Positions 35,764-37,868 of a stretch of DNA of 64,000 nucleotides are shown one piece after another. Made by a program: the position numbers and the translations under genes. Each line of letters opens with the position of its first letter. The first letter of the stretch is position 1. Source of the DNA: a phage; the sequence record PX930852.1; one strand, written 5' to 3'. The notes below the pieces were generated by a model that was given only the letters and a program-made list of their open reading frames with translations, did not search any database and had not been told where the DNA came from.

Positions 35764-35919
35764 ACTATGTTCAGTACAGTCATTCTATTTATACTGGTTG
35801 TCTTTGTATTGTCATACGTTGCAAGTAAGCTTTTGGACACATCTTTTGCAATGGGTGTCTTGTTTACAATCTTTTGTTTCGTGACGCATATAGCTATCAG
35901 AACTTTTTTATAAAAGTTG

Positions 35920-35947
35920 TTGACATAGGAAATTTGGTGAGTATACT
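35920..35947 (+). promoter_or_regulatory. Sigma70-type promoter (TTGACA-N16-TATACT)
   Basis: Consensus -35 at 35920-35925 and near-consensus -10 at 35942-35947. Confidence 0.5.
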
Positions 35948-35974
35948 GAGCATCATAAACCAACGGGTACTCAC

Positions 35975-36290
35975 CAGCATCACTTAAGAGTCTTTGAAAA
36001 GGGTTTTTAAGTGATGTAATGCGTGGCTCGGTGCAGTGAAGTATGGTGGGGTAGGGTATAATATGGTGCGGTAATGTATGGGTAGTTAGTCTCAGCTACA
36101 TTAAAATGAGACTTACCTTTTTAAAAGGTCTTTGGAGAGGGTCTTTTAATAAGGTCTGGTGTAGTAGGGTTGGGCATGGTACGGTCCGGTGTGGTGTGGC
36201 ACGGTATGGGTGGATGGTAGTATCCACGTTAAAAATCTACCAAGTTTCTAAAGAGTCTTCTGTTGAGGGTTCTTTACAAACAACTTAACA
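35975..36290. repeat. Repeat-dense non-coding island A: G-rich GGT-periodic arrays, conserved hairpin and direct-repeat element
   Basis: Hairpin AGTCTCAGCTACATTAAAATGAGACT at 36088-36113; element TTAAAAGGTCTTTGGAGAGGGTCTTTTAA at 36117-36154; GGTNN-periodic tracts at 36020-36085 and 36155-36225. Confidence 0.6.
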
Positions 36291-36317
36291 ATCAACTAAA
36301 GTGTGGAGCTAAATGCT

Positions 36318-36905
36318 ATGAAACTGTTAAATATCAAAATCACTGGTACTCGTCCTTTCTTGAGCCATAACGATACGTTGTCAGACCCATTAAACCCTCT
36401 GACGAAATATCACAAGTCTCTGTCCAGTAAACGTAAAAAGACTGACGAAGACTATGCGCTCTTAGCAGAAAGCCAACTGGTAACTTCTTGTTACTACGAT
36501 GAGCAGCTAGGTTTTGTTATGAACGGTGAGATGATTGAGGCTTGTATCAAGTCTGGTGCAAAACTCAACAAACTTGGTAAGGTAATTGACCGAGCCATTA
36601 TGCTGACAGATGTAGTCTTCCCAATGACTATCAAGAACTGTCCAGCAAACCCACAAGAACTCGCTAAGAATCCAGACTTTATCTATGCTAAGTCTGTTAA
36701 GATTGGTACAGCACGAGTTATGAGCTACCGTCCAATCTTCCGTGACTGGTCTGTAGAGTTTGGTTTGATGTTCGATGAAGAGCAAATCACCCGAGAGGAA
36801 CTTCTGATGGTTCTGGAAAATGCTGGCAACCTTTGTGGTGTAGGTGATTGGCGTCCACGCTTTGGTCGTTTTTCTGTAGAAGTTATTTCAGAAGGTAACG
36901 TTTAA
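36318..36905 (+). CDS. Hypothetical protein (first gene of repeat-flanked cassette)
   Basis: Start set at ATG 36318 after GGAG; no recognisable motif. Confidence 0.4.
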
Positions 36906-36907
36906 TT

Positions 36908-37348
36908 ATGAATACAAAAGCATTAGCAGCAAAGTTTAGTTACGGTGACACTGTATCACATTCTGAGATGGACACCTTCTTAGGTATTGTGAAGCCAACT
37001 TATCAAGGTGACATTGTTAAGTACGAAGATGAAATGAAGGCTTATGCACTTACACGTCTAAACCGACTTGAGAAGTTTATTGAAAAGCTTCTTAAAGAAG
37101 AGAAGATTTATCTGGTTGCTTCAATGGGTGTTGGTTATCGTGTGGTTGAACCTAAGCATCAAGCAACTATTGCAAAACGTAAAATGTCTGGTAAGATTGG
37201 TCGTGCTTTAAAGCAAGCCACTCAAGCGATTGAGAATGTGAATACTATGGCACTTAGTCATCAAGAACGTTCACGACTGATTGAACAGCAAAACCATTTA
37301 GCTGCTATGAAAGCTAACATTAACAAGCAACGTAGAAAACCTTTCTAA
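36908..37348 (+). CDS. Hypothetical protein (second gene of repeat-flanked cassette)
   Basis: 146-aa ORF with helical basic C-terminus. Confidence 0.4.
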   Translation: MNTKALAAKFSYGDTVSHSEMDTFLGIVKPTYQGDIVKYEDEMKAYALTRLNRLEKFIEKLLKEEKIYLVASMGVGYRVVEPKHQATIAKRKMSGKIGRALKQATQAIENVNTMALSHQERSRLIEQQNHLAAMKANINKQRRKPF

Positions 37349-37360
37349 GTTGACTAGGTA

Positions 37361-37383
37361 GCCTCTTCGGAGGCTCCTTTTTA
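37361..37383 (+). terminator. Rho-independent terminator (GCCTC-TTCG-GAGGC plus T-run)
   Basis: Stem-loop followed by TCCTTTTT directly after the 36908..37348 stop. Confidence 0.55.
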
Positions 37384-37790
37384 AAAGGTCTTTAAGAGGG
37401 TCTTTTAATGAGGTACGGCGCGGTTAGGTAAGGTCTGGTAGGGTAGGGTGAGGTTTGGTAAAGTGCGGGTAGTTAATCGGAGCTACATAAAAATTCGATT
37501 ACATCACTTAAGAGTCTTTAAATTATAGTCGATAGAGTATCTCATAGGGTTTTTAAGTGAGGTGTGGTAAAGCGCGGTTAGGTATGGCGCGGTCAGGTCA
37601 GGTGAGGTTCGGTGCGGGTAGTTAGTCTCAGCTACATTAAAATGAGACTTACCTTTTTAAAAGGTCTTTAAGAGGGTCTTTTAATAAGGTATTGTATGGT
37701 GTAGTTTGGTTAGGTATGGTTGGGTGTGGTAAGGTAGGGTATGGAAGGATGGCAGTAGCCTTATAAAAAATCTGCCAAATAAGCTATAAA
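37377..37790. repeat. Repeat-dense non-coding island B: two further copies of the island-A unit
   Basis: ~75 bp near-identical to island A at 37615-37690 (hairpin at 37624-37649); variant hairpin at 37475-37500; G-rich GGT-periodic arrays at 37410-37470, 37560-37620, 37690-37760. Confidence 0.6.
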
Positions 37791-37795
37791 ATCTG

Positions 37796-37830
37796 TTGAC
37801 AAGTCAGGTGTTATAGCTTATTTTTATACT
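37796..37830 (+). promoter_or_regulatory. Candidate promoter (TTGACA at 37796-37801 with A/T-rich -10 candidates)
   Basis: Consensus -35 hexamer; -10 either TATTTT (17-bp spacer) or TATACT (23-bp spacer), so ambiguous. Confidence 0.3.
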
Positions 37831-37868
37831 CAATGTAATACAAAATTTAATATAACTTTGAGGTCATT

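Follow-up and report, generated by a model that had tools for sequence, protein, structure and literature searches.

Introduction

Systems called VIPR, for Viral Interference Programmable Repeat, were described in two bioRxiv preprints of 2026, which report the type II system of phage SUSP1 (10.64898/2026.04.26.720920 and 10.64898/2026.04.26.720927). The components are given there as a minimal RAMP protein (Vipr), an accessory gene (vap) and guide RNAs (vrRNAs) consisting of 9-16 GGY/NN pentamers and a conserved tail, in the SUSP1 clade a pseudoknot. The present study deals with a locus of repeat arrays and two genes in a phage sequence of 64,000 nucleotides (record PX930852.1), which was analysed over its full length and is called the window below. 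This locus is very probably a type II VIPR of the SUSP1 clade, carrying five guides against a satellite of Escherichia coli.

Small-RNA sequencing of SUSP1 detected four vrRNAs, each about 100 nt long, of which one is encoded upstream of the genes and three are encoded downstream; these vrRNAs co-purify with Vipr (10.64898/2026.04.26.720920,.720927). Cryo-electron microscopy (cryo-EM) revealed a filament with one protomer per repeat, in which GGY is sequestered and NN is presented. Double-stranded DNA (dsDNA) is recognized by successive NN, which pair with target dinucleotides one skipped base apart. Binding leads to transcriptional repression without requirement for a protospacer-adjacent motif (PAM), as found in green fluorescent protein and phage assays, and vap1 raises the protection. 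The natural targets of SUSP1 are in a satellite phage of E. coli, and VIPR was proposed as ancestral to the RAMPs of CRISPR systems (10.64898/2026.04.26.720920,.720927).

Results

Organization of the locus

The window phage belongs to the Ounavirinae (Felix-O1-like) and is a Felixounavirus; its locus is 99.6% identical to that of LF82P9. The gene pair vipr (36318-36905) and vap1 (36908-37348), both on the + strand, is found in a locus with the gene of an ATP-dependent DNA ligase on one side and a block ending in dihydrofolate reductase (DHFR) and thymidylate synthase genes on the other. The 195-aa RAMP-fold protein Vipr and the 146-aa accessory protein Vap1 share 97% and 99% identity with SUSP1 ALH47069.1 and ALH47068.1, respectively. 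The gene order around the pair, next to the ligase gene, is the same as in SUSP1 (KT454805.2).

Two islands flanking the gene pair are composed of five + strand modules, two upstream and three downstream of vipr-vap1. Every module starts with a G·U-rich hairpin, continues with a tract of GGYNN pentamers, and ends in a conserved pseudoknot tail of 33-38 nt. The modules are confined to the locus, with no further copies in the 64 kb. GGT recurs at period 5 with up to 9 of 12 positions in phase in the five arrays, versus at most 4 of 12 elsewhere on both strands of the 64 kb, which is far beyond chance. Eleven clear GGYNN units are present in each of the five arrays, and the first array has 13 in-phase units.

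The original prediction, made from the sequence of the window, had seen here GGTNN-periodic G-rich arrays in two repeat-dense, non-coding islands of about 0.5 kb on both sides of a two-gene cassette. The arrays, their density and their flanking position are borne out. The upstream island has to be corrected to 35914-36317, because 35767-35913 is a conserved open reading frame (ORF) of 48 aa. The arrays had not been linked to the enclosed genes, and the information held in the NN positions had been overlooked. The product of the 48-aa ORF is hydrophobic and belongs to phrog_22006 (E 5e-33); the ORF is located between the ligase gene and the promoter described below.

Guides and their targets in an E. 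coli satellite

A total of 5,426 complete E. coli genomes were searched with the locus by BLAST, and a solitary vrRNA-like sequence was found in 50 chromosomes. One of these sequences, in locus L031, lies inside the element targeted by the guides, a highly variable, satellite-like island of about 10-12 kb (locus L031, 4920-16900, and loci L032-L041). It encodes a large serine recombinase, tape-measure and baseplate proteins and an HNH endonuclease; a Dam-like methyltransferase, a protein with an AP2 domain or a helix-turn-helix protein is encoded in some cases as well. The family is present in 568 of the 5,426 genomes, where its insertion site is either yecE (DUF72) or the interval from tonB to yciI.

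Targets for the guides of the window were sought in 12 satellite loci, which amount to 421 kb when both strands are counted. With only the first two of these loci, no match of at least 80% was obtained, and ten more satellite variants had to be added. All five guides were then matched with a skip of one base between successive dinucleotides. The tape-measure gene is targeted by both upstream guides, vrRNA1 with 23 of 26 positions, including two degenerate 5' units, and vrRNA2 with 19 of 22. The guide vrRNA4 matches the large serine recombinase gene at 20 of 22 positions, with the first 10 units perfect. The remaining guides have two promoter-proximal sites as targets: the site of vrRNA3 (21/22; L035 7742-7773) precedes the start of a satellite gene of 236 aa by 49-80 nt, and that of vrRNA5 (20/22; L032 10335-10366) precedes the first gene of the satellite's leftward operon by 30-61 nt. 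No comparable match was found in the 12 satellite loci with skip lengths of 0, 2 or 3. Shuffling the order within each guide 200 times gave maxima of 17-21, and the observed score of the guide was never reached. For each of the three coding targets, the base that is skipped is at the wobble position of a codon. The window itself contains no target of the five guides, with a best self-match of 16/22.

The skip rule could also be examined in the relatives of the window phage. Sixteen of 61 arrays from relatives reach an NN match of at least 80% within one 30-kb satellite locus (L031) at a skip of 1, all of them inside the element, while skips of 0, 2 and 3 give 0, 0 and 1 such arrays. The 1-nt skip rule is thus independently reproduced from the arrays of relatives.

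The target matches of the guides of the window also bear on the ends of the guides. The degenerate 5' units of vrRNA1 (TGTAA and TGCGT; 36015-36024) overlap the 3' arm of the preceding hairpin and yet match the target, so that the guide begins within the hairpin arm. The last pentamer of the vrRNA1, vrRNA2 and vrRNA4 arrays (e.g., 37611-37615) mismatches the target. Across relatives this unit is usually GGTAT, and it may therefore be part of the handle rather than of the guide.

The solitary vrRNAs at L030 14920-15135 (chromosome of E. coli 2013C-4830) and at about L031 14961-15064 have their own TTGACG-17-TATAAT promoter, 11 GGYNN units, a tail of the T2 type (see below) and an intrinsic terminator, with no vipr nearby. 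Satellites encoding vrRNAs are mentioned in the VIPR preprint.

Vipr and Vap1 proteins

Pfam and PHROGs gave no functional annotation for Vipr or Vap1, and none of the 519 detectable Vipr homologues has a Pfam domain. The fold was recognized from structure. An AlphaFold (AF2) model of Vipr, built from an alignment of 34 diverse homologues, has a pLDDT of 94, and the top 50 matches of this model against the PDB by Foldseek are almost all Csm3, Cas7 and Cmr4 proteins, which form the backbone in type III and type VII CRISPR effectors (E 2e-5, TM 0.45-0.56), with Cas6 appearing lower in the list. A C-terminal glycine-rich stretch conserved across the 34 homologues is the glycine-rich loop of RAMPs. 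The residues published as contacts of GGY and the skipped base, H17, K33, R138, D177, W178 and R179, are all present in the Vipr of the window. Of these, R138 and R179 do not vary in the alignment of diverse homologues, where H17 and K33 reach a conservation of at least 90%.

For Vap1, no significant fold match in favor of the predicted DNA-binding fold was obtained by Foldseek with a single-sequence model of pLDDT 68, the best being weak winged-helix matches at E 0.24. A word index returned three Vap1 homologues. A gene of 146-176 aa directly follows vipr in the distant loci too. Stretches resembling Felix O1, among them a Vipr gene that shares 99% identity with that of the window, were also met in GU169904 (Staphylococcus phage SA1) and MG065664 (Campylobacter phage A132), which are probably mixed or chimeric records.

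Constant and variable positions of the arrays

The arrays were compared in 19 genomes, namely the window and 18 relatives whose Vipr is 96-100% identical. They contain 82 vrRNA instances with 64 unique arrays of 5-20 units, mostly 10-15. Within the pentamer, G1 is conserved at 76%, G2 at 98% and the pyrimidine Y3 at 100%, and the entropy reaches 1.92 bits at N4 and 1.88 bits at N5. The hairpins and tails are nearly invariant in the relatives, unlike the NN positions, which matches the pattern of spacer versus repeat described in the preprint. Whether cassette and repeats are conserved among related phages, a question raised by the original prediction, thus has a divided answer: hairpins and tails are near-invariant, NN is hypervariable, and the gene pair is absent in about half of the relatives.

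Promoter, modules and terminators

All features in this section are on the + strand. A sigma-70-type promoter (TTGACA-16-TATACT; 35920-35947) agrees with the consensus at 11 of 12 positions, is the best in 33-41 kb, and reads into the upstream array. It is kept in the relatives EC6 and BPS15S6, and from its sequence it is predicted to be active.

Module 1 opens with a hairpin of the CATCACTTAAGAGTCTT...AGGGTTTTTAAGTGATG type (35977-36017), for which the RNA fold gives -18.5 kcal/mol and z -5.4, with 0 of 200 shuffles equally stable. The vrRNA1 repeat tract of 13 in-phase pentamers follows (36015-36079; its 11 clear GGYNN units start at 36025), and then a tail of type T1 with an H-type pseudoknot (36080-36117; GGTAG-TT-AGTCTCA-G-CTAC-ATTAAAA-TGAGACT). 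Module 2 has a hairpin of the TTAAAAGGTCTT-loop-AGGGTCTTTTAA type (36121-36149), a vrRNA2 tract of 11 GGYNN units (36153-36207) and a T2a pseudoknot tail (36208-36241; GTGG-AT-GGTAG-TAT-CCAC-GTTAAAAAT-CTACC). A sixth hairpin of the same family is placed directly upstream of vipr (36249-36276; -13.6 kcal/mol, z -3.25).

Downstream of vap1, a hairpin with a T-run that resembles an intrinsic terminator (37360-37382; z -3.3) precedes module 3, which is composed of a hairpin (37381-37408), a vrRNA3 tract of 11 units (37412-37466) and a T1 variant tail (37467-37504) whose AATCGGA/TTCGATT stem departs from that of the other T1 tails by three compensatory changes. The hairpin of module 4 (37502-37562; -16.4 kcal/mol, z -4.1) carries a 26-nt insertion in its loop and leads into the 11 units of vrRNA4 (37561-37615) and a T1 tail of the same sequence as in vrRNA1 (37616-37653). 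Module 5 has a hairpin at 37657-37684, 11 units of vrRNA5 at 37688-37742, and a T2b tail at 37743-37776 (AAGG-AT-GGCAG-TAG-CCTT-ATAAAAAAT-CTGCC). The array is closed by an AT-rich inverted repeat that forms a terminal hairpin with a T-run (37777-37825; -17.8 kcal/mol, z -4.8) and contains a promoter-like site for the next gene (TTGACA at 37796).

The repeats listed in the original prediction were all found again at this level. The 26-nt hairpin AGTCTCAGCTACATTAAAATGAGACT is exact at 36088-36113 and 37624-37649, with 0 copies expected by chance, and its variant at 37475-37500 is present with three compensatory stem changes. The near-identity of about 75 bp between the islands holds for 36080-36155 and 37615-37690, and the consensus promoter into the upstream island is the one given above. 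The TTAAAAGGTCTTT-RR-AGGGTCTTTTAA element does occur three times, with exact copies at 37381-37408 and 37657-37684; its -RR- spacing is inexact, because the loop of the copy at 36121-36149 is one base longer (GGAG versus AAG). The search for known noncoding RNAs that had been proposed gave no identity to these elements: no match to the Rfam 15 covariance models at gathering score and no tRNA or tmRNA gene were found in the window.

The record of phage wV8 labels part of the locus 'DR_4' with no function assigned, and these arrays are not among the repeats listed in the Felix O1 paper. The top TRF score of the window (97) belongs to a tandem repeat of two 30-nt copies (GTTAGTAGTCTTAGTCCCATAGTCAAAAGA) at 44877-44935, which is unrelated to the VIPR locus.

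Pseudoknot tails

The tails fall into two types. Either type can adopt an H-type pseudoknot in which the third loop is A-rich. Pairing is 100% in stem 2 of T1, where three pairs covary, one of them through G-C, G·U and A-U, and stem 1 is invariant. The nested extended stem, which is the minimum-free-energy choice of RNAfold for T1, was rejected as an alternative; the pseudoknot is favored because this nested stem is only 65% paired across the variants. The T2 tails have the consensus GTGG-AT-GGYAG-TAG-CCAC-RTTAAAAAT-CTRCC, with compensatory changes in both stems between T2a and T2b and 98% of cells paired. The covariation of the tails is made up of few independent events.

The 5' hairpin family

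The hairpins share the form TTAARAGKCTT-loop-AGGGTYTTTTAA. There are six copies, one before each of the five vrRNAs and one before vipr, all in the locus. In 17 unique variants, the TTAAAAGGTCTT-loop-AGGGTCTTTTAA subtype is 99% paired as + strand RNA versus 74.5% on the opposite strand. A 26-nt loop insertion is accommodated in the copy of module 4. A reading of the hairpins as -35/-10 promoters was rejected for the whole family, since this insertion separates the halves in one copy and the halves are 99% paired via G·U. The family is not mentioned in the accessible parts of the VIPR preprints (10.64898/2026.04.26.720920,.720927).

Arrays beside distant homologues

Homologues only 37-45% identical to Vipr also have period-5 GGY arrays on the coding strand beside the gene pair, including those in unrelated phages and a Rhodococcus chromosome. 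Three such loci (L022, L024 and L025) show arrays beside a vipr/vap pair, and a fourth (L027) has its array locus inside a module of RecA, exonuclease and endonuclease VII genes. L023 has GGCNN units with a T-arm-like tail. L026, from a high-GC phage contig (IMG/VR 3300020049_003234, 2876-4320), carries GGTNN arrays of 13-20 units. It adjoins portal and S49-protease genes, and its arrays abut coding sequences directly. No recognizable tail was seen between the two adjacent arrays of L026, and a terminator-like hairpin is located between its promoter and first array.

The locus on the chromosome of Rhodococcus globerulus (L028, 5112-5668) has five tandem GGCNN arrays of 10-14 units downstream of the vipr/vap pair. 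Each of these arrays ends in a tRNA-like minihelix of acceptor stem and T-arm (GGTCCGG..GGCGGTTCGATTCCGCC..CCGGAC), and two of the array ends are labeled 'tRNA-???' by ARAGORN. Judging from these tails and the similar tail of L023, tRNA-processing enzymes may cut arrays of this type. The term 'tRNA' is absent from the preprint text (10.64898/2026.04.26.720920,.720927).

Alternative explanations

The alternative that survives best is nevertheless very improbable. It regards the repeats as recombination sites, for attachment or homing, that bound a mobile two-gene cassette, as the original prediction had considered. The distribution of the genes is in keeping with it, as only about half of the relatives have them: 130 phage records encode Vipr, versus 259 that share the flanks of the locus. 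The Felixounaviruses Escherichia phage EC6 (JX560968; L043 3090-3180) and Salmonella phage BPS15S6 (L044 3100-3330) have neither vipr nor vap1, and what is left of their vrRNA modules is fused in the way that recombination between repeated modules would produce. A gene of 127 aa directly follows the ligase gene in both. Complete orphan vrRNAs, with array and tail, are present under the same promoter, one in EC6 and two in BPS15S6, and a tblastn search of the complete EC6 genome with the two proteins gave no match. From these junctions, the repeats seem to have mediated the deletion of vipr-vap1 in the two phages. A recombinase or homing endonuclease is, however, absent in and beside the cassette, and the position is constant, always after the ligase gene. 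The repeats have a role of their own as guide RNAs, demonstrated for SUSP1. Repeat-mediated deletion is then a side effect of repetitiveness and no sign of mobility.

Even less credit can be given to a role at the DNA level, in which the arrays serve as replication origin, protein-binding iterons, or a regulatory region prone to G-quadruplexes or R-loops below the strong promoter. This promoter does read into G-rich non-template DNA, the locus is in a block of replication and nucleotide metabolism (ligase, DHFR and thymidylate synthase), and the GC skew has local spikes of 0.36 and 0.49. The cumulative GC skew nevertheless rises monotonically with no inflection, and no run of G is longer than GG. 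G·U pairs, which only + strand RNA can offer, are required for the helices, whose stems show compensatory changes. Moreover, unit number and NN are hypervariable between near-identical phages, the match of NN to an external element is seen at a single skip length, and relatives such as EC6 are viable without most of the region. The G-quadruplex and the origin suggested by the original prediction are accordingly not supported, and its structured RNA or protein-binding repeats are retained only in the broad sense of guide RNAs bound by one RAMP subunit per pentamer.

Equally remote is a regulatory or sponge RNA wrapped around a ring-shaped TRAP-like protein, which would control translation of adjacent genes or titrate a host factor: the number of clear GGY triplets is exactly 11 in all five arrays of the window and the spacers are 2 nt long, which is the geometry of a TRAP site, and an array of L026 reaches the ribosome-binding site of the vipr homologue, but the unit number is 7-20 in relatives and 13-20 in L026, the partner has the RAMP/Cas7 fold and, as published for SUSP1, forms a helical filament and not a ring, and the spacer bases are informative and match targets. 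Coding sequence in the arrays (a 60-aa ORF at 36106-36288) was rejected because unit number and NN vary freely and no reading frame is kept.

Discussion

Interpretation as a VIPR locus

With the alternatives set aside, the type II VIPR reading accounts for the paired genes, the arrays and the targets. By analogy with SUSP1, the islands would give rise to vrRNAs about 100 nt long. Each GGYNN unit would be occupied by one Vipr protomer, which holds GGY and displays the two variable bases, and the 3' pseudoknot would cap the filament. The NN dinucleotides would pair with dsDNA carrying the same dinucleotides one skipped base apart, and the binding would repress transcription, enhanced by Vap1. 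During infection, the phage would thereby silence a satellite that would otherwise parasitize it. The conserved 5' hairpins could act as punctuation or as a processing aid for polycistronic vrRNA transcripts.

Several points weigh against the VIPR interpretation. The literature behind it consists of two preprints from one laboratory, and vrRNA expression, the Vipr ribonucleoprotein and repression are carried over to the window phage by analogy with SUSP1. The target matches of 86-95% are imperfect and come from 12 satellite loci rather than the pangenome, and the element is presumed to be a true satellite of the window phage. Because stem 1 of T1 is invariant, the case for the T1 pseudoknot comes down to analogy and the published cryo-EM structure. 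The terminator-like hairpin at 37360-37382 separates vap1 from the three downstream vrRNAs, which would have to be transcribed past it.

VIPR is reported as a new class of RNA-guided DNA recognition, with a non-contiguous 2-of-5 code, a single protein of about 20 kDa, and no PAM. The window represents a natural member of this class and provides an independent, purely computational confirmation of three published claims, including the pattern of conserved GGY and variable NN, together with a concrete target map for the five guides of a Felixounavirus. The VIPR system is already known from the 2026 preprints on the near-identical SUSP1 locus, and no new question is opened here, because system, mechanism and target class have been described for that locus. 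Minor additions to what the accessible parts of the preprints contain are the 5' hairpin family and the orphan vrRNAs in relatives without vipr. It is a tentative and rather doubtful suggestion that the hairpin family is a third component of the clade, a processing or assembly signal that sets the 5' ends of vrRNAs, and that the orphan vrRNAs are functional in trans, using or titrating the Vipr of a relative that infects the same cell.

Comparison with known systems

RNA anti-CRISPRs, or solitary repeat units in phages, are guide-like RNAs without a cognate protein gene, which mimic CRISPR repeats and poison Cas complexes. The orphan vrRNAs of EC6 and BPS15S6 and the vrRNAs of the E. coli satellites are comparable as guide-like RNAs without a protein gene. 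Unlike RNA anti-CRISPRs, the orphan vrRNAs look, by their sequence, like complete guides with array and tail. The Bacillus trp leader RNA bound by TRAP shares with VIPR the conserved triplets separated by 2-3 variable spacer bases, one for each subunit of an oligomer. TRAP differs in its fold and forms a closed 11-mer ring instead of a filament, whereas the unit number of VIPR is variable and its spacers carry targeting information.

The filaments of class 1 CRISPR-Cas systems, formed by Csm3, Cmr4 or Cas7 on crRNA, have the same RAMP/RRM fold with glycine-rich loop and thumb, with one protomer per RNA register and a variable guide capped by a conserved handle. The register differs, with 5 nt in VIPR (3 sequestered and 2 pairing) and 6 nt in class 1 CRISPR-Cas (5 pairing). 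VIPR further differs in reading a dsDNA target with a 1-nt skip and in being encoded by a lytic phage. Neither a repeat-spacer array nor genes for Cas10, Cas5, Cas6 or adaptation were found in the locus of the window; its period is 5 nt, and neither of its only two genes has a Pfam cas domain.

SUSP1 is a Suspvirus and the window phage a Felixounavirus, both in the Ounavirinae. Their loci differ in the number of vrRNAs, one upstream and three downstream in SUSP1 versus two and three in the window, and in the guide sequences. Self-targets are absent in both. They have in common the vipr-vap1 pair, the position after the ligase gene, GGY/NN vrRNAs with pseudoknot tails, and a target class of satellites with tape-measure and baseplate genes.

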